A DNA stretch of 32,000 nt from Pseudomonas aeruginosa. Lineage in GTDB: Bacteria; Pseudomonadota; Gammaproteobacteria; Pseudomonadales; Pseudomonadaceae. This document shows positions 1,828 through 16,930 of this stretch, piece by piece. The stretch lies in assembly GCF_001457615.1 (NCBI RefSeq), contig NZ_LN831024.1, positions 150,001 to 182,000 on the forward strand, written 5' to 3'. The position numbers and the translations under genes are program-made. The first letter of the stretch is position 1, and the number at the start of each line of letters is the position of its first letter. The notes under the pieces were generated by a model. The model worked only from the letters and a program-made list of their open reading frames with translations, searched no databases and was not told where the DNA came from.

Positions 1828-3126
1828 TCACCCCTTCACATGGCGCCGCTCCCCCATCACCCAGGTCTCCGCCACCGCGCGGTCGTCGCCCAGGGTGTTC
1901 AGCACGAACAGGGTATCGGCCAGGCCGCGCGCATGCTCCATGCGCTGGGCGATCATCGGCGTGGCGGCCAGGTCGAGGGCGACGAAGTCGGCTTCGCGGC
2001 CGGGCAGGAAGTTACCGACCAGGCCGTCCAGGTCGAGCGCCCTGGCGCCGCCGAGGGTGGCCAGGTAGAGCGCCTGGAACGGATCGAGGCTGGTGCCGCG
2101 CAATTGCTGGATCTTGTAGGCGTCGGCGAGGTTGGCCAGCAGCGACAGGCTGGTGCCGCCGCCGACGTCGCTACCGATGCCGACGCGGATGCCGTATTGC
2201 TGGGCGCGGCCAAGGTCGAACAGGCCGGAGCCGATGAACAGGTTGGAACTGGGACAGTGCGCCAGCGCCGCGTTCTTGTGCGCCAGGCAGCGGCATTCGC
2301 GTTCGGAGAGATGGATGCCATGGGCGAACACGCTGCGTTCGCCGACCAGGCCGGCGCGATGATAGACGTCCAGGTAGTCCTGCGCCTGGGGAAACAGCTC
2401 GCCGACCCAGGCGACTTCCTTGAGGTTCTCCGAAAGATGGGTGTGCAGGTAGACGCCGGGATACTCGTCCAGCAGGCGCGCCGCCGCGGCCAGTTGCTCG
2501 GGCGAGGAGGTCGGCGCGAAGCGCGGGGTGACCGCGTATTGCAGGCGCCCGTTGCCGTGCCAGCGCTCGATCAGCGCGCGGCTCTCGGCGTAGCCACTGG
2601 CCGCGGTATCGCACAGCGCCGGCGGCGCGTTGCGGTCCATCAGCACCTTGCCGGCGATCATCCGCAGGCGGCGCTTCTGCGCGGCCTGGAAGAATGCCTC
2701 GGCGGATACCGCATGGACCGTGCCGAACACCAGCGCGGTAGTGGTGCCGTGGCGCAGCAGTTCGTCGAGGAACAGCTCGGCCTGGGCGGCGGCGTAGCCG
2801 GCATCGGCAAAGCGCTGCTCGGCGGGAAAGGTGTGGGTTTCCAGCCAGTCCAGCAGTTGGGTGCCGTAGGAGGCGATCACTCCGAGTTGCGGGTAATGCA
2901 CATGGCAGTCGACGAAGCCGGGCAGCAGCAGGCGCTGCGGATGGTCCTCCAGCGGCAGGTCGGCGGGCAGTTGCGGCAGCAGGTAGGTTGCGTGATCGAG
3001 CGCGCGCACGTGGCCGTGTTCGATCCACAGCAGGCCGTCCTCGAAATACTCCCAGGCCTTGTCGCCGAGTTTCGCCGGGTCGCCGAGGAAATGCAGGATC
3101 CGCCCGCGATGGGCCGAACTGCTCAT
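1828..3126 (-). CDS. guaD: guanine deaminase (amidohydrolase superfamily)
   Basis: The ORF 1828..3198 shows strong colinear similarity, by recall, to E. coli GuaD: PGFVDCHVHYPQ (HxH), TALVFGTVH, RMIAGKVLMDRNAP, AVTPRFAPTSSPEQL, HTHLSEN, HCPSSNLFIGSG, GIGSDVGGG, LATLGGA. I prefer the internal ATG at 3126 (MSSSAHRGRILHF), which has GGCGGGAG upstream and aligns with the GuaD N-terminus. The 3198 start would add 24 unconserved residues. Confidence 0.9.
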   Translation of the reverse strand: MSSSAHRGRILHFLGDPAKLGDKAWEYFEDGLLWIEHGHVRALDHATYLLPQLPADLPLEDHPQRLLLPGFVDCHVHYPQLGVIASYGTQLLDWLETHTFPAEQRFADAGYAAAQAELFLDELLRHGTTTALVFGTVHAVSAEAFFQAAQKRRLRMIAGKVLMDRNAPPALCDTAASGYAESRALIERWHGNGRLQYAVTPRFAPTSSPEQLAAAARLLDEYPGVYLHTHLSENLKEVAWVGELFPQAQDYLDVYHRAGLVGERSVFAHGIHLSERECRCLAHKNAALAHCPSSNLFIGSGLFDLGRAQQYGIRVGIGSDVGGGTSLSLLANLADAYKIQQLRGTSLDPFQALYLATLGGARALDLDGLVGNFLPGREADFVALDLAATPMIAQRMEHARGLADTLFVLNTLGDDRAVAETWVMGERRHVKG

Positions 3127-3308
3127 CGCGCTCCCGCCGTGGTCGGAGTGCAGGATAAGTGGGGGGACGAAGTTGCCAGCAGGTACTGCATCGTTCATCT
3201 CCTCTGCTGCCGGAATGGCGCTTTCGCCTCTTTAGTCCGGGAAATCGACGGAAATATCCCGTCTTTGGCGCGTGATCTCGCTTCCGCCATTATGCACTGT
3301 GCGCATGC

Positions 3309-4076
3309 TGTGGATAAGTCTGTGTGTAGCGCGTGTGCGGAAAGATTGCACGAGCCATTGCGGGATGTGCCCATCTGGCTGCCGGCAGGCGATCCGCGGA
3401 AAGCGTTCCGGCACCTTGAATCCGCCTTGCGAAATGCCCGGTCGGCAACTGGCGCTTCTGTGGGTTTGTCTGTGGAAAAGCTGTTCGCATTCCCCGTTGA
3501 AAAAATGCCTTCGGCGGTCGAGGGAAAGGCATTGGACGGGGCCGCAGGATTTCTCCCGATTGGCGAAAGAGCCAGAGAAAAAGCGCTGTGGAATGCGCCA
3601 CGACAGTGCATCGCGAAACTGTGGACAGCGGATCCACCCATGGCGCCGCCGAGCATGCTTCCGTCGATCGCCGCGGACTTTCCTGGAAAGCCGGAAAACC
3701 CAGTATTCATGGGCATCATGGCGTCTAAAGGGGAAGTCCTGGAGACATTTTCACGGGCATTCCCGTTCCGCGGGTTTCCTGTGGAAAAGCTGTTGGCAAA
3801 CTGTGCCGGAAGCGGGCCGCCGGGGCTGCCCCAGGGATTCGGCCGACCCGTGGCTTGGCCGGGAGAGATCGTCCTGCCGTGCTCCTCCGAACGGCTGTCG
3901 ATATCTTGTGGATAAAGCTGTTGGCAAAGTGTTGGAAAAAATGCCTTGCCAGGTCGCGCCCATGGCCTGCCGGGTTGGCTGTTTTCTGTCCATCGCCATG
4001 TTGCGAAAATCGCCGGGACGATCGGCGCGGGAGGCTTCCCAAGGTCCCGGATGGGCTCCCGACACGCTGTGGATAA
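3309..4076 (+). promoter_or_regulatory. cluster of co-oriented DnaA-box motifs (TGTGGATAA, which is TTATCCACA on the minus strand) in an ORF-free gap
   Basis: Perfect 9-mers at 3309-3317, 3907-3915 and 4068-4076. 8/9 matches (TGTGGAAAA) at 3471-3479 and 3780-3788. A 7/9 match (TGTGGACAG) at 3620-3628. All are on the same strand. I found no other perfect copy in the 32 kb. Confidence 0.6.
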
Positions 4077-4307
4077 CTCTGTGAGCAAGGTGGTGATGAC
4101 TGTTTTGCGACAAATGCTCACGCGGGTGCGCCGCAGGGTTGCCCGCAAATGTGCCGCGGCGTCCCAGGCGTGCCCCGGCTTGGTGCCGCTCGGCGCGGGA
4201 GCCTGGCCCGTGGCTCCCGGTGCAAGCCGCGTTCCAGGGCTTTCCTGACCTCCTGGCCAGGTATTTGCACCGGCCGCCGCATCGTCGAGCAACCGATCGG
4301 GTCCGCC

Positions 4308-5879
4308 ATGTCCGCACCTTCCTCTTTCGCGCCGCCGCGCCTCGAACTGCGCGGGATCAGCAAGCGTTATCCGGGTTGCCTGGCCAACGACCGCATCGAC
4401 CTGTGCATCGACGCCGGCGAGATCCACGCCCTGCTCGGTGAGAACGGCGCCGGCAAGAGCACGCTGATGAAGATCATCTACGGCGTGACCCGTCCCGATG
4501 CCGGCGAGATCCGCTGGCAGGGCGAGCCGGTGCAGGTACGCGACCCGGCTCGCGCCCGGGCGCTGGGGATCGGCATGGTGTTCCAGCATTTCTCCCTGTT
4601 CGAGACGCTCAGCGTGGCGGAGAACATCGCGCTCGCCCTCGGCGCCGAGGCGGGCAGCCCGCGTCGGTTGGAGGCGCGTATTCGCGAGGTGTCGCAGCGC
4701 TACGGCATGCCGCTGGAGCCTCGCCGGTTGGTCCATGGGCTGTCCATCGGCGAGCGCCAGCGGGTGGAGATCGTGCGCTGCCTGATGCAGGACATCCGCC
4801 TGCTGATCCTCGACGAGCCGACCTCGGTGCTGACCCCGCGCGAGGCCGAGGATCTCTTCGTCACCCTGCGCCGTCTTGCGGAGGAGGGTTGCAGTGTCCT
4901 CTTCATCAGCCACAAGCTGGCCGAGGTCCGTGCGCTCTGCCAGCGCGCCACGGTGCTGCGCGGCGGACGGGTGGCCGGACAGTGCGTGCCGGCGCAATGT
5001 TCCGATCTCGAGCTGGCGCGGCTGATGGTGGGCGACGCCGAGGGCCTGGCGGCGGAGTATCCGAAGGCTACCGGCGGCGCGCCTTTCCTCCAGGTGCGCG
5101 ACCTGCACTGGCGCAACCCGGACCCCTTCGGCGTGTCCTTCACCGGCCTCGACCTGGAGGTGCGCAGCGGCGAGATCCTCGGTATCGCCGGGGTCGCCGG
5201 CAACGGCCAGGACGAGTTGCTCGCTCTGCTCAGCGGCGAAGTGCGCCTGCCGCGCGCCCAGGCCGAGCGCATCCGCCTCGGCGGCTGCGCCGGCGCGCAC
5301 CTGGCGCCGGATGCGCGGCGCCGCGCCGGCCAGGCCTTCGTGCCCGCCGAGCGGCTGGGGCACGGCGCGGTGCCGGAGATGAGCCTGGCGGACAATGCGC
5401 TGCTCACCGCCTTCCAGCAGGGTCTGGTGAAGCGCGGGTTGGTCCGGCGGCGCAAGGTGCTGGCGCTGGCCGAGGAGATCATCCGCCGTTTCGCCGTGAA
5501 GACCCCGGGTGCCGGGGCGCCGGCACGCAGCCTTTCCGGCGGCAACCTGCAGAAGTTCATTCTCGGCCGCGAGATCCTCCAGGCCCCGCGCCTGCTGGTG
5601 GCGGCGCATCCCACCTGGGGCGTGGACGTCGGCGCGGCGGCGCTGATCCACCGCGCGCTGATCGCCTTGCGCGATACCGGTACGGCGATCCTGGTGGTCT
5701 CCGAGGACCTCGACGAGCTGTTCCTGCTCAGCGACCGCATCGCCGCGCTGTGTTCGGGTCGGCTGTGCCCGGCGGTCGCCACCGCGAGCGCTTCGCCGCA
5801 GCAGGTCGGCGGCTGGATGGCCGGTCAATTCGAGGCGCCGGCGGCGGTCGCCGGCGCCGTTGCCCAAGGGAGCCTGTGA
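4308..5879 (+). CDS. ABC transporter ATP-binding protein with duplicated ATPase domains (sugar/nucleoside CUT2-type, BMP-family importer)
   Basis: Frame of ORF 4149..5879. The ATG at 4308 (MSAPSSFAPPRLELRGISKRYPG) gives 523 aa. Two Walker A motifs (GENGAGKST, GVAGNGQDE) and two signature motifs (LSIGERQRV, LSGGNLQKF). The residues upstream of 4308 are Arg/Cys-rich and do not look like protein. Confidence 0.9.
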   Translation: MSAPSSFAPPRLELRGISKRYPGCLANDRIDLCIDAGEIHALLGENGAGKSTLMKIIYGVTRPDAGEIRWQGEPVQVRDPARARALGIGMVFQHFSLFETLSVAENIALALGAEAGSPRRLEARIREVSQRYGMPLEPRRLVHGLSIGERQRVEIVRCLMQDIRLLILDEPTSVLTPREAEDLFVTLRRLAEEGCSVLFISHKLAEVRALCQRATVLRGGRVAGQCVPAQCSDLELARLMVGDAEGLAAEYPKATGGAPFLQVRDLHWRNPDPFGVSFTGLDLEVRSGEILGIAGVAGNGQDELLALLSGEVRLPRAQAERIRLGGCAGAHLAPDARRRAGQAFVPAERLGHGAVPEMSLADNALLTAFQQGLVKRGLVRRRKVLALAEEIIRRFAVKTPGAGAPARSLSGGNLQKFILGREILQAPRLLVAAHPTWGVDVGAAALIHRALIALRDTGTAILVVSEDLDELFLLSDRIAALCSGRLCPAVATASASPQQVGGWMAGQFEAPAAVAGAVAQGSL

Positions 5880-6976
5880 TGCTGTTGTCCCTGGAACCGC
5901 GCGGCCGGCAGTCGCGCTGGATGCTGCTGGCCTCTCCGCTGCTGGCGGGGTTGCTGACCCTGGTCTGCGGCGCGCTGCTGTTCGCCTGTCTCGGCCACGA
6001 TCCCTGGCAGACCCTGCATACCGTGCTGGTACAGCCGCTCAGCGACCTCTATGGGCTCGGCGAGCTGCTGGTCAAGGCCATGCCGATCCTGCTCTGTGCC
6101 CTCGGCCTGGCACTGGCCTACCAGGCGCGCGTGTGGAACATCGGCGCGGAGGGCCAGTTGCTGGTCGGCGCCCTGGCCGGCAGCGCGGTGGCGATCCAGT
6201 TGCTCGACTGGCAGAGCCGCTGGGCGCTGGCCTGGGTGCTGCTCGCCGGCACCGCTGCCGGGGCGCTCTGGGCCGGGTTCGCCGCCTGGCTGCGAACGCG
6301 CTTCAACGCCAACGAGATCCTGACCACCATCATGCTCAACTACATCGCGCTGAACCTGCTGCTGTACGGCGTGCACGGGCCGTTGAAGGACCCGGATGGC
6401 TTCAACTTCCCGCAGTCGGCGCTGTTCGGCGAGGCCAGCCGCCTGCCGGCGCTGTTCGAGGACAGCCGGGTGCACCTTGGCGCATTGTTCGGCCTGCTGG
6501 CGCTGGCGGCGGTCTGGGTGCTGGCGCAGCGCAGCTTCCTCGGTTTCCAGGTCCGCGTGCTCGGCCTCGACCGCCGCGCCGCCGGTTTCGTCGGTTTCCG
6601 CGAGAAGCGCCTGGTCTGGTTCGTGCTGCTGTTCTCCGGCGCGCTGGCAGGCCTGGCCGGCGTCTGCGAGGTCGCCGGGCCGATCGGCCAACTGGTGCCG
6701 CAGGTCTCGCCGGGCTACGGCTATGCGGCGATCACCGTGGCCTTCCTTGGCCGTCTCAATCCGTTCGGCATCCTCTGCGCCAGCCTGCTGATGGCGTTGC
6801 TCTACCTCGGCGGCGAGGCCGCGCAGATGAGCCTCAACCTGCCGTTGGCGCTGACCGGGCTGTTCCAGGGGATGATGCTGTTCTTCCTCCTCGCCTGTGA
6901 CGTGCTGATCCTCTACCGCCCACGTTTGCACGGACGCTGGCGCAAGCGCCCGGCGCTGCGCGACGCCCTGGCCTGA
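5879..6976 (+). CDS. ABC transporter permease (BPD_transp_2 / RbsC-like)
   Basis: Lies in the frame of ORF 4889..6976. The start ATG at 5879 overlaps the ATPase stop (TGATG). It reads MLLSLEPRGRQSRWMLLASPLLAGLLTLVCGALLF... and is a multi-TM hydrophobic protein of 365 aa containing NIGAEGQLL. The part of the track ORF upstream of 5879 is an out-of-frame shadow of the ATPase gene. Confidence 0.88.
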   Translation: MLLSLEPRGRQSRWMLLASPLLAGLLTLVCGALLFACLGHDPWQTLHTVLVQPLSDLYGLGELLVKAMPILLCALGLALAYQARVWNIGAEGQLLVGALAGSAVAIQLLDWQSRWALAWVLLAGTAAGALWAGFAAWLRTRFNANEILTTIMLNYIALNLLLYGVHGPLKDPDGFNFPQSALFGEASRLPALFEDSRVHLGALFGLLALAAVWVLAQRSFLGFQVRVLGLDRRAAGFVGFREKRLVWFVLLFSGALAGLAGVCEVAGPIGQLVPQVSPGYGYAAITVAFLGRLNPFGILCASLLMALLYLGGEAAQMSLNLPLALTGLFQGMMLFFLLACDVLILYRPRLHGRWRKRPALRDALA

Positions 6977-15832: not shown

Positions 15833-16930
15833 ATGAAACACCGTCGCACGCAATCCCGCATGTCCGTCCTGCGCCGCCTTGCCGCCGTCCTCGGCCTCGG
15901 CGCCTGCGCTCTCGCCGCCGAGGCCGCCGAACCACTGAAGATCGGCTTCGTCTATGTCGGCCCGGTCGGCGACCACGGCTGGACCTACCAGCACGAACTG
16001 GGCCGCCGCGAACTGGTGGAGCACTTCGGCGACAAGGTGAAGACCAGCTTCGTCGAGAACGTCGCCGAGGGCGCCGACGCCGAGCGGGTCATCCGCAACC
16101 TGGCGAAAGACGGCTACGGCCTGGTCTTCACCACCTCCTTCGGCTACATGAACCCTACCGCCAAGGTGGCCCGGCAGTTTCCCAAGGTGACCTTCGAGCA
16201 CGCCACCGGCTACAAGCGCGACAGGAACCTCGGCACCTACCTGTCGCGCTCCTACGAGGGACGCTACGTCGGCGGCTTCCTCGCGGCGAAGATGACCCGC
16301 AGCCACAAGATCGGCTACATCGCCTCGTTTCCGATTCCCGAGGTGATCCGCGACATCAACGCGATCCAGCTGGCGCTGGACAAATACGACCCGCAGGCCG
16401 AACTCAAGGTGATGTGGGTGAGCACCTGGTTCGATCCGGGCAAGGAGGCCGACGCGGCCACCGCGCTGATCGACCAGGGCGTCGACGTGGTGTTCCAGCA
16501 CACCGATAGCCCGGCGCCGATCCAGGCCGCCGAGCGTCGCGGGGTGTACGCCGTGGGCTACGCCTCGGACATGCAGCACTTCGGTCCGAAGACCGTGCTC
16601 ACCTCGATCGTCAACGACTGGGGCCCGCACTATATCCGCTCGGCCCAGGCGGTGATGGACGGCACCTGGAAATCCGAGGACTTCTGGGGTGGCCTGGCCG
16701 AGAGTACGGTGGTCCTGCCGCTGAACCAGGAGGTGCTGCCGGCGCCGGTGCGGGAAGAGGCGGGCAGGCTGATCGAGTCGATCCGCAGCGGAGCCTTCCA
16801 CCCCTTCACTGGGCCGATCCGCGACCAGTCCGGCAAGGAGCGTTTCGCCGCCGGCGTCAGCGCGACCAATGCCGACCTGGCGTCGATGAACTATTACGTG
16901 GAAGGCATCAAGGCCGACCTGCCGAAGTGA
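15833..16930 (+). CDS. BMP-family (PnrA/Med-like) ABC transporter substrate-binding protein, probable nucleoside-binding lipoprotein
   Basis: Frame of ORF 15797..16930. I prefer the ATG at 15833 (MKHRRTQSRMSVLRRLAAVLGLGACALAAEAAEP), which has GGAG 11 nt upstream. The signal peptide has a possible LGAC lipobox. BMP-family core: LKIGFVYVGPVGDHGWTYQH...FTTSFGYM...GYIASFPIPEV. Alternative starts at 15797 and 15860. Confidence 0.85.
   Translation: MKHRRTQSRMSVLRRLAAVLGLGACALAAEAAEPLKIGFVYVGPVGDHGWTYQHELGRRELVEHFGDKVKTSFVENVAEGADAERVIRNLAKDGYGLVFTTSFGYMNPTAKVARQFPKVTFEHATGYKRDRNLGTYLSRSYEGRYVGGFLAAKMTRSHKIGYIASFPIPEVIRDINAIQLALDKYDPQAELKVMWVSTWFDPGKEADAATALIDQGVDVVFQHTDSPAPIQAAERRGVYAVGYASDMQHFGPKTVLTSIVNDWGPHYIRSAQAVMDGTWKSEDFWGGLAESTVVLPLNQEVLPAPVREEAGRLIESIRSGAFHPFTGPIRDQSGKERFAAGVSATNADLASMNYYVEGIKADLPK

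Follow-up and report, generated by a model that had tools for sequence, protein, structure and literature searches.

Co-oriented DnaA-box modules in the gap between guaD and a nucleoside-type ABC operon of Pseudomonas aeruginosa: a candidate non-origin DnaA-binding array

Why should a chromosome carry a cluster of DnaA boxes in non-coding DNA away from its origin of replication? The question is raised by a gap in the Pseudomonas aeruginosa chromosome (RefSeq contig NZ_LN831024.1) that separates a guanine-deaminase-like gene (guaD) from the ATPase gene of an ATP-binding cassette (ABC) importer of nucleoside or purine type. The gap lies within a stretch of 32,000 nucleotides, positions 150,001 to 182,000 of the contig, which is referred to here as the window. 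A preliminary description of this DNA had pointed out the cluster, and our analysis confirms the overall observation of a co-oriented, non-coding cluster of consensus DnaA boxes away from oriC. We consider it likely that DnaA binds the gap at all. Our preferred reading, which is tentative, is that the gap is a non-origin DnaA-binding array acting as a sink or buffer for DnaA, with possible side effects on the promoters of purine-salvage genes.

To our knowledge, the control of initiation through non-origin DnaA loci, namely datA, the DnaA-reactivating sequences DARS1 and DARS2, and the clusters of Bacillus subtilis, has been worked out in few model organisms only. Pseudomonas is a genus of major pathogens and workhorse strains with an unusual dual-origin region, and a literature search of incomplete coverage found no description of this locus or of the related twin triplets reported below. 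The array is a precise, conserved and easily deleted target of 800 bp in P. aeruginosa.

Modular array of DnaA boxes in a non-coding gap

An exact scan of both strands finds TGTGGATAA three times in the 32 kb, at positions 3309, 3907 and 4068 of the window and always on the + strand, just as first reported. The mean number of copies in shuffled sequences is 0.02, and three copies were reached in none of 100 shuffles. When one mismatch is allowed, only TGTGGAAAA at 3471 and 3780 is added, on the + strand and in the gap in both cases. The resulting five sites in the window compare with 1.08 expected, and this number was likewise reached in 0 of 100 shuffles. A site with seven of nine matches, TGTGGACAG, is found at 3620, so that the rescan agrees with the earlier listing of weaker copies on the same strand. 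The near-equal spacings noted before, 162 bp from 3309 to 3471 and 161 bp from 3907 to 4068, also hold. The five boxes with no more than one mismatch are packed within 770 bp; for comparison, boxes of the type TTWTNCACA, to which these five belong, number 129 in the whole 6.3 Mb P. aeruginosa genome (PMC13438810).

What the preliminary description missed is the modular structure. The 9-mers are parts of longer modules, in which co-oriented box-like 9-mers recur around the anchor boxes at offsets of -11/-12, +11/+12 and +23/+24. Double boxes, defined as two co-oriented 9-mers that are 2 or 3 bp apart with at least 14 of 18 matches, were scanned on both strands. All seven in the window lie in the gap and on the + strand, compared with 0.002 in shuffles of the gap. 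The gap and its six modules are as follows.

3199-4307, no strand: whole array-bearing gap, non-coding according to the GC profile, Pfam and the alignment with the PA7-like clade
3290-3329, + strand: module 1; TTATGCACT (inverted box, 3290-3298) abuts TGTGCGCAT-gc-TGTGGATAA (3309-3317, perfect)-gtc-TGTGTGTAG
3459-3490, + strand: module 2; TGTGGGTTT-gtc-TGTGGAAAA (3471-3479, 8/9)-gc-TGTTCGCAT
3618-3630, + strand: module 3, the weakest; lone 7/9 box TGTGGACAG (3620-3628) without a good partner box
3780-3810, + strand: module 4; TGTGGAAAA (8/9)-gc-TGTTGGCAA-ac-TGTGCCGGA
3896-3938, + strand: module 5; TGTCGATAT-ct-TGTGGATAA (3907-3915, perfect)-agc-TGTTGGCAA-ag-TGTTGGAAA
4068-4099, + strand: module 6; TGTGGATAA (4068-4076, perfect)-ctc-TGTGAGCAA-gg-TGGTGATGA

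The spacings of the units from module 1 to module 6 are 162, 149, 160, 127 and 161 bp. In a unit alignment, the six units have a core of about 40 nt in common and can be described by repeat families D1 to D5, and their overall likeness is only about 48%; the units are thus best taken as old tandem duplicates. As a strict tandem repeat, Tandem Repeats Finder reports only an 11-nt stretch of 2.6 copies inside module 5. A further motif, GCCGCAGGRTT, is weakly shared 50-70 bp after several boxes and is not significant across the window (8 against 6.9 expected).

The spacing within the modules matches that of in vivo DnaA sites in E. coli. In the chromatin immunoprecipitation sequencing (ChIP-seq) data of Stringer et al., nearly all in vivo targets of Escherichia coli DnaA have pairs of boxes 2 or 3 bp apart, both boxes are required for binding, and one base added to the spacer abolishes it (PMC11317965).

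Several lines of evidence agree that the gap holds no credible coding frame, as had been proposed. Its guanine-plus-cytosine (GC) content in 300-nt windows is 57-63%, compared with 67-72% in the flanking genes, and within each frame the three codon positions differ little in GC (about 0.55-0.65). The longest open reading frame (ORF; 3272-4084) shows codon-position values of 0.55/0.61/0.63, whereas those of guaD are 0.73/0.45/0.87. No Pfam match was obtained for the candidate ORFs of the gap. Compared with the ortholog from a PA7-like strain (L081), substitutions within this ORF are spread as 68/61/60 over the three codon phases, and 1-bp insertions or deletions occur at 3346, 3999 and 4053. 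The hypothetical ORFs called in the gap also differ from strain to strain. A coding gene is thus ruled out.

Other kinds of element were rejected as well. A structured RNA is unsupported, since an Rfam scan of the gap gave nothing at the gathering threshold and one meaningless match at E < 1. Sigma70 promoters and terminators in the gap show no excess over shuffles. Remnants of yigZ, TetR or Bmp genes, which flank the element in other species, were sought by tblastn against the gap, with a best E value of 0.5. A remnant of a plasmid or phage origin is rejected because blastn gave no match to any of 72,556 plasmids and 50,697 records of phages.

Conservation of the modules and a proposed role as DnaA sink

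To assess selection, we aligned the gap with the PA7-like ortholog, whose ABC ATPase is 94% identical. Of the 54 positions in the six 9-mers, 53 are identical, against an identity of 67% (552/822) for the rest of the gap with the promoter excluded. The modules as a whole (-13 to +31 around each box) are 85% identical (Fisher p = 4e-9 against the 67% background). The module flanks without the 9-mers are still 82% identical (p = 2e-5). Seven of the ten longest identical runs are six module runs and the promoter (4251-4269). The module runs cover 3297-3324 in module 1, 3455-3491 in module 2, which at 37 nt is the longest in the gap, 3776-3806 (31 nt) in module 4, 3918-3943 in module 5, and both 4066-4083 and 4085-4105 in module 6. 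In module 3, ACTGTGGACAGCG is kept. Two other P. aeruginosa strains have gaps that are 98% identical, with the same five boxes. The preliminary description had asked whether the boxes recur in the orthologous gaps of related strains; in the PA7-like clade they do, and their identity over the background indicates purifying selection on the boxes.

The same alignment contains three identical islands of 19-32 nt that are free of boxes (3423-3441, 3537-3556 and 3961-3992), two of which carry a motif like GCCGCAGGRTT. The PA7-like clade also has a 50-bp insertion (L081:2921-2970) opposite position 3276 of the window, near the guaD-proximal end of the gap.

In a complete genome record of 6.43 Mb, the locus occupies 154.9-163.6 kb. 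Its genes are presumably PA0134-PA0140 of strain PAO1, in agreement with this coordinate, and the positive GC skew of the + strand agrees with it too. Provided that dnaA stands at the start of this record, the array is copied early in replication, which suits a sink that acts after initiation.

We propose the following mechanism. Five of the six modules combine a box of nine or eight matches with co-oriented weaker boxes across spacers of 2-3 bp, and each of them would nucleate a short head-to-tail DnaA oligomer. Such oligomers are known from the low-affinity arrays of oriC; it is because of these arrays, together with the paired in vivo sites of E. coli described above, that we expect them at double and triple boxes. 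The modules together would form a high-capacity DnaA-binding locus about 155 kb from oriC that is duplicated soon after initiation. Its main role would be to take up free DnaA, most likely ATP-DnaA, as a sink or negative buffer, similar to the oriC-proximal clusters of B. subtilis or to the titration aspect of E. coli datA. Secondarily, DnaA occupancy may affect the divergent guaD promoter and the sigma54-driven promoter of the ABC operon. The analysis shows the anatomy of the sequence, its non-coding character, the purifying selection on the modules and their setting among related species; binding, oligomer formation, sink function and the direction of the effect on initiation are all inferred here.

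Among known loci, datA shares several features with the array: it is a non-origin locus of about 1 kb with about five boxes and close box pairs, it is origin-proximal, and, like the array, it is a candidate for negative control of initiation. In E. coli datA (L216), boxes at 678, 745, 907 and 919 occur in both orientations with an AT-rich site for integration host factor (IHF) between them, and the essential boxes are TTATCCACA at 745 and TTATTCACA-agc-TGTGGATGA at 907-927. The IHF site is essential for DnaA-ATP hydrolysis at datA. In contrast, the consensus boxes of the P. aeruginosa array are all co-oriented in DNA of 57-63% GC, so the datA order of box 2, IHF site and an oppositely oriented pair of boxes 7 and 3 is not found, nor does the gap contain an AT-rich stretch like that of datA or a match to the E. 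coli IHF consensus.

Clusters of DnaA boxes close to oriC (DBCs) in B. subtilis (Okumura et al. 2012, as cited in PMC13438810) are another related system. They too are intergenic, non-origin loci with several consensus boxes, have no unwinding element and no requirement for IHF, and have the proposed role of holding DnaA and restraining initiation; the nearness to oriC is also shared if the record coordinate holds. They differ in belonging to another phylum, and the P. aeruginosa array is a single locus within 32 kb, made of six evenly spaced, co-oriented double- or triple-box modules from tandem duplication. As a member of the general class, the array has consensus boxes clustered in non-coding, non-oriC DNA far above chance and kept by selection. 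A non-origin DnaA-box cluster is a known kind of locus; what is new is the architecture and the apparent derivation from an element with DARS geometry.

Box triplets with DARS geometry in other Pseudomonas

We compared the regions upstream of the ABC operon in other species, with genomes picked by protein similarity only (ABC ATPase or YigZ). Boxes are present in seven loci, from M. furukawaii, P. chlororaphis, two fluorescens-like strains, P. tremae, strain MMS21 and P. solani, and the gap is 500-740 bp where delimited. To its left lies yigZ (Impact_N), directly in M. furukawaii and P. chlororaphis and with two further genes intervening in P. solani. The loci have two perfect + strand boxes 199-206 bp apart, and MMS21 has one. 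Each perfect box is the third member of a triplet of the form box(-)-N5-box(+)-N3-box(+), as in the pair TTGCCCACA-tctgc-TGTGCACCC-ggc-TGTGGATAA and TTGCGCACA-aatac-TGTGGAGCA-atc-TGTGGATAA. The triplets and the promoter are the conserved islands of the box-bearing intergenic region, with a column identity of 0.85-0.87 in the triplets compared with 0.57. The triplets lie at the following positions.

L002:5480-5716: twin triplets
L003:5480-5716: twin triplets
L004:5475-5711: twin triplets
L086:3529-3762: twin triplets
L090:2514-2750: twin triplets
L217:5916-6156: twin triplets
L010:5666-5700: single triplet

This geometry is exactly that of the E. coli DARS1 and DARS2 cores. A DARS core consists of three DnaA boxes, of which I and II are opposite and 5 bp apart and II and III are co-oriented (PMC6868365). 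In E. coli K-12, DARS1 reads TTATCCACT-attcc-TGTGGATAA-cca-TGTGTATTA (L093:1108), and the triplet of the DARS2 region reads TTATCCCAG-ctttc-TGTGGATAA-cat-GGTGTAAGA (L094:1452). A composite score for this geometry, box(-)-N5-box(+)-N3-box(+), of at least 20 is reached at 15 of 357,000 positions scanned, all of which are E. coli DARS loci or Pseudomonas triplets; the Pseudomonas triplets score 21-23, DARS1 24 and the DARS2 region 20-22. The Pseudomonas twin triplets are candidate DARS-like loci on these grounds. They differ from DARS1 in that the perfect box is box III and not box II, and the IHF or Fis regulatory region of DARS is not recognisable in Pseudomonas. The DARS2 region also contains a second triplet of the same geometry, TTATTCACC-ttttc-TGTGGATAG-agt-TGTGAAGAA, in the rppH-mutH intergenic region (L094:1136-1170).

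The P. aeruginosa array keeps part of this geometry. A co-oriented pair with a 3-bp spacer and a full-consensus box, corresponding to boxes II and III (TGTGGATAA-N3-TGTGnnnnn), is found in module 1 (TGTGGATAA-gtc-TGTGTGTAG), module 5 (TGTGGATAA-agc-TGTTGGCAA) and module 6 (TGTGGATAA-ctc-TGTGAGCAA), and CTGTGGATAAC in module 6 is the same 11-mer context as that of box II in E. coli DARS1 and DARS2. Other Pseudomonas have the complete I-N5-II-N3-III arrangement at the corresponding position, twice and about 200 bp apart, whereas P. aeruginosa is without the inverted box I at 5 bp. In P. aeruginosa the composite score peaks at 19/27 at position 4054, where GGCTCCCGA (4/9) stands in the place of box I. 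The only inverted box (TTATGCACT at 3290) is 10 bp from the perfect box and is degenerate in the PA7-like clade (TTATGCGCT). The preliminary description had likened the locus to DARS or datA. The link is reasonable and is backed by the triplets of related species, whereas the strict DARS core and the datA anatomy are absent from P. aeruginosa.

Module 1 looks like a derivative of one member of the twin triplets. Its left part reads TTATGCAC followed directly by TGTGCGCAT-gc-TGTGGATAA, and it can be aligned with triplet 1 of the other species by dropping the 5 bp that separate boxes I and II and taking one base out of the spacer from II to III. Module 2 (TGTGGGTTT-gtc-TGTGGAAAA) has its counterpart in boxes II and III of triplet 2. 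The array appears to be a remodelled and expanded derivative of the DARS-geometry twin-triplet element in the same neighbourhood. The pattern suggests, short of demonstrated homology, that the twin element was inherited by the P. aeruginosa/PA7 lineage, where its head-to-head pairs and the promoter-proximal box disappeared and its head-to-tail part grew to six modules. When the gaps of the other species were aligned with that of P. aeruginosa, nothing outside the boxes and the promoter could be matched.

The triplet is not confined to these loci. A metagenome scan with CACA-N4-CTGTG-N7-CTGTGGATAA returned at least 120 loci (L095-L214) with 32-70% GC. Among the matches listed, the five free positions before CACA read T (107/121), T (108), R (114), Y (114) and C (79), and reading the free positions fills out an inverted box, TTRYCCACA, and a second box, TGTGGA. 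Since positions that the query left unspecified complete the inverted box, the triplet architecture is real and widespread, and DARS-type triplets seem to occur well beyond enterobacteria. The listed matches also hint that a fourth box (TGnG) follows the third at a distance of 2 bp.

Two metagenome loci, L128 and L139, have the twin triplets after TetR-yigZ, followed by a short-chain dehydrogenase and guanine deaminase, with no ABC operon. The element is therefore not simply an operator of the ABC operon. A second triplet family comprises at least 26 metagenome loci (L096, L098, L103, L111 and L112 among them) with one triplet at an unrelated locus, and its best protein matches are from the P. 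putida group. In L111 the triplet TTGTGCACA-atgac-TGTGGAACC-gcc-TGTGGATAA (6780-6809) is at the 3' end of a histone-deacetylase-family gene, and in this family a TTTTCCACA box follows about 110 bp on, before a TIGR03862 flavoprotein gene.

The genus thus has a companion element with the exact geometry of the E. coli DARS core, and two questions become testable: whether DARS/datA-type regulation exists beyond enterobacteria, and whether it is by the head-to-head box pair that a DnaA reactivator differs from a sink. A more far-reaching proposal, which we hold to be unlikely as it stands, is that the twin triplets, carried by most species (downstream of yigZ and usually upstream of the nucleoside ABC operon), and the P. 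putida-group triplet are reactivators, and that in P. aeruginosa and P. paraeruginosa the element, through loss of its head-to-head pairs and growth to six head-to-tail modules, was converted to an origin-proximal DnaA sink between purine-salvage genes. If true, DARS/datA-type control would be defined outside enterobacteria for the first time, with a natural case of one such locus type evolving into the other.

Competing explanations and the gene neighbourhood

Several findings weigh against a DnaA sink. The partner boxes within the modules are weak, with 5-6 of 9 matches, and module 3 is a single 7/9 box. The array is without the defining parts of the E. coli loci: the IHF site WATCARNNNNTTR, scanned in the form of the E. 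coli consensus only, is matched nowhere in the window, and no inverted box is found 5 bp upstream in any module, where matches reach only 2-4 of 9. The evidence for selection is one pairwise clade comparison, in which the sole box change turns the 9-mer of module 5 into TGTTGATAA. The origin-proximal placement, at about 155 kb, depends on dnaA being at the start of the genome record. Boxless loci with a gap of 205-214 bp occur in QL9, P. knackmussii, P. citronellolis, P. panipatensis and A. alcaligenes; because several close relatives are without boxes, the element is dispensable upstream of the ABC operon. Purine-salvage genes lie close to the box clusters in every case, and this would suit a purely transcriptional role as well. 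Finally, the literature search found no DnaA binding data at the locus and no DnaA ChIP data for P. aeruginosa. Two of the boxless species have a perfect CCTGTGGATAATC box inside an xdhA-like gene for the small subunit of xanthine dehydrogenase (QL9, L085:3161; P. knackmussii, L087, 840 nt before the ABC start), which may be due to chance.

The explanation that competes most seriously, and that we regard as unlikely, is that DnaA is purely a transcription factor here, so that the divergent purine-salvage genes sense the DnaA level or the nucleotide state without feedback on replication, on the model of purH, guaB and nrdAB in E. coli. It concerns the following features.

1828-3198, - strand: guanine-deaminase-like amidohydrolase (Amidohydro_1; guaD), left flank, pointing away from the gap
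4308-5879, + strand: ATPase of a nucleoside/purine-type ABC importer, right flank, followed by permease genes
4254-4269, + strand: sigma54-type promoter-like element TGGCCAGGTATTTGCA (GG-N10-GC), 54 nt before the ABC ATPase ATG

The promoter-like element is identical in the PA7-like ortholog. The pattern TGGC-N7-8-TTGCW is found 28-87 nt before the ABC match or start in 16 of the 16 Pseudomonas, Stutzerimonas and related loci tabulated, at about -54 wherever the start codon is known, and also in three other Gammaproteobacteria loci. In most box-bearing loci, an inverted box abuts the sigma54 -12 element or lies just downstream of it. This third, inverted box at the -12 element (TTGCTTTATCCACAGG) is seen in fluorescens-, syringae- and furukawaii-type loci, and DnaA bound to it could, judging from its position, block the sigma54 promoter in those species. 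A DnaA-controlled promoter is a possible reading. The clusters also adjoin a TetR_C_3 regulator, xanthine permease, guanine deaminase or the ABC importer across different gene orders, and this constant purine-salvage neighbourhood suggests a link between nucleotide supply and DnaA. In P. aeruginosa, module 1 is 100-170 bp from the guaD start. In E. coli, the DnaA regulon is compact, rich in nucleotide-synthesis genes and built on double-box sites (PMC11317965).

However, P. aeruginosa has no promoter-proximal box, and about 180 bp separate its last box from the sigma54 element downstream. A promoter would need far fewer than five or six conserved modules over 800 bp, and it is this capacity, five of the boxes that number 129 genome-wide being held within 770 bp, that leads us to disfavour a purely transcriptional role. 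The twin triplets also persist without a downstream ABC operon in L128 and L139, and the same triplet architecture recurs at the unrelated locus of the P. putida group.

The second explanation, which we consider rather improbable, is DARS-type reactivation, in which ADP-DnaA would assemble on the modules and release ADP, so that ATP-DnaA is regenerated; it is the function that the presumed ancestral twin triplets suggest. Triplets with the exact core geometry in the orthologous regions of at least seven other Pseudomonas loci, one of them with a single triplet, speak for it, as do the box II-N3-box III halves of modules 1, 5 and 6 and the resemblance of TTATGCACT in module 1 to box I of E. coli DARS1 (TTATCCACT). 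Against it, the head-to-head box pair is essential for ADP release in E. coli (PMC6868365). As described above, no P. aeruginosa module has an inverted 9-mer at the required distance, and the inverted box of module 1 abuts the weak TGTGCGCAT and degenerates to TTATGCGCT in the PA7-like ortholog.

The third explanation is that the array is no DnaA element at all, being either a decaying tandem duplication with a chance motif or the direct repeats of another regulator, such as a response regulator of the OmpR/PhoB family, in which the modules would be read as CTGTG every 11-12 bp. The six units do share ancestry, as seen from the D1-D5 families and the 40-nt core, and the recurrence of GCCGCAGGRTT after several boxes implies that the copies are not independent. 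The CTGTG-N6-7-CTGTK periodicity also resembles the direct-repeat sites of winged-helix regulators, of which Pho-box-type sites are an example. Yet the units are only about 48% alike outside the core, whereas the 9-mers match the consensus at 9, 8, 7, 8, 9 and 9 of 9 positions and have changed at one position between the clades. A direct-repeat regulator also leaves unexplained why unrelated intergenic DNA elsewhere has the perfect 9-mer together with an inverted TTRYCCACA, with the free query positions of the listed metagenome matches reading T-T-R-Y-C. We regard this explanation as quite improbable.

The preliminary description had also raised a cryptic origin-like element and, more specifically, the second autonomously replicating sequence (ARS) of Yee and Smith. 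According to PMC13438810 and bioRxiv 10.1101/2025.08.05.668638, their ARS fragments are oriC1 (rpmH-dnaA) and oriC2 (pae301/oriCII), which is upstream of gidA and overlaps it. The window contains guaD, the ABC operon, ahpC and ahpF, and the identity with the second ARS is ruled out by its position at gidA. At oriCII, DnaA binds the boxes in vitro, and the boxes modulate the promoter next to them (PMC13438810). The array shares with oriCII a DnaA-box cluster outside the primary origin in the same species; they differ in that oriCII is beside the oriC region and replicates autonomously, whereas the array is about 155 kb away and has no unwinding element. A secondary origin, be it the published one or a third, is highly improbable: although the number of consensus boxes is comparable to that of oriCI and oriCII (five each in the original descriptions, as given in PMC13438810), the gap has no AT-rich unwinding element (GC minima of 43% per 60 bp and 35% per 40 bp, both inside module 5) and no similarity to plasmid or phage records, the window has no IHF consensus site, and modules 127-162 bp apart offer no compact region for oligomerisation.

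The sink reading is thus preferred, and the remaining observations concern the neighbourhood. The flanking genes are as first described, a guanine-deaminase-like gene on the - strand and the ABC ATPase gene on the + strand, and the order in the window is the guaD-like gene, the gap, the ABC ATPase, two permeases, ahpC and ahpF. The ABC ATPase shares 99% identity with P. aeruginosa entries. For guaD, an alternative start at 3126 is chosen by the gene caller in another strain. One further gene of the transport system is located apart from the operon.

15857-16927: gene for a Bmp-family substrate-binding protein

In M. furukawaii and P. putida, the Bmp gene directly follows the permeases. In P. 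aeruginosa it is about 9 kb downstream, with ahpC, ahpF and other genes between it and the ABC operon.

An inverted DnaA box directly after or close to the sigma54 -12 element is located at L002:5930-5938, L003:5930, L004:5944 and L086:3980. The promoter element itself, in the form TGGCCAG-N4-TTGCW, precedes the nucleoside-type ABC operon in Pseudomonas, Stutzerimonas, Marinobacter and Oceanospirillales (L001-L010, L081-L092 and L217), and is itself preceded by a conserved TCCTGAC.

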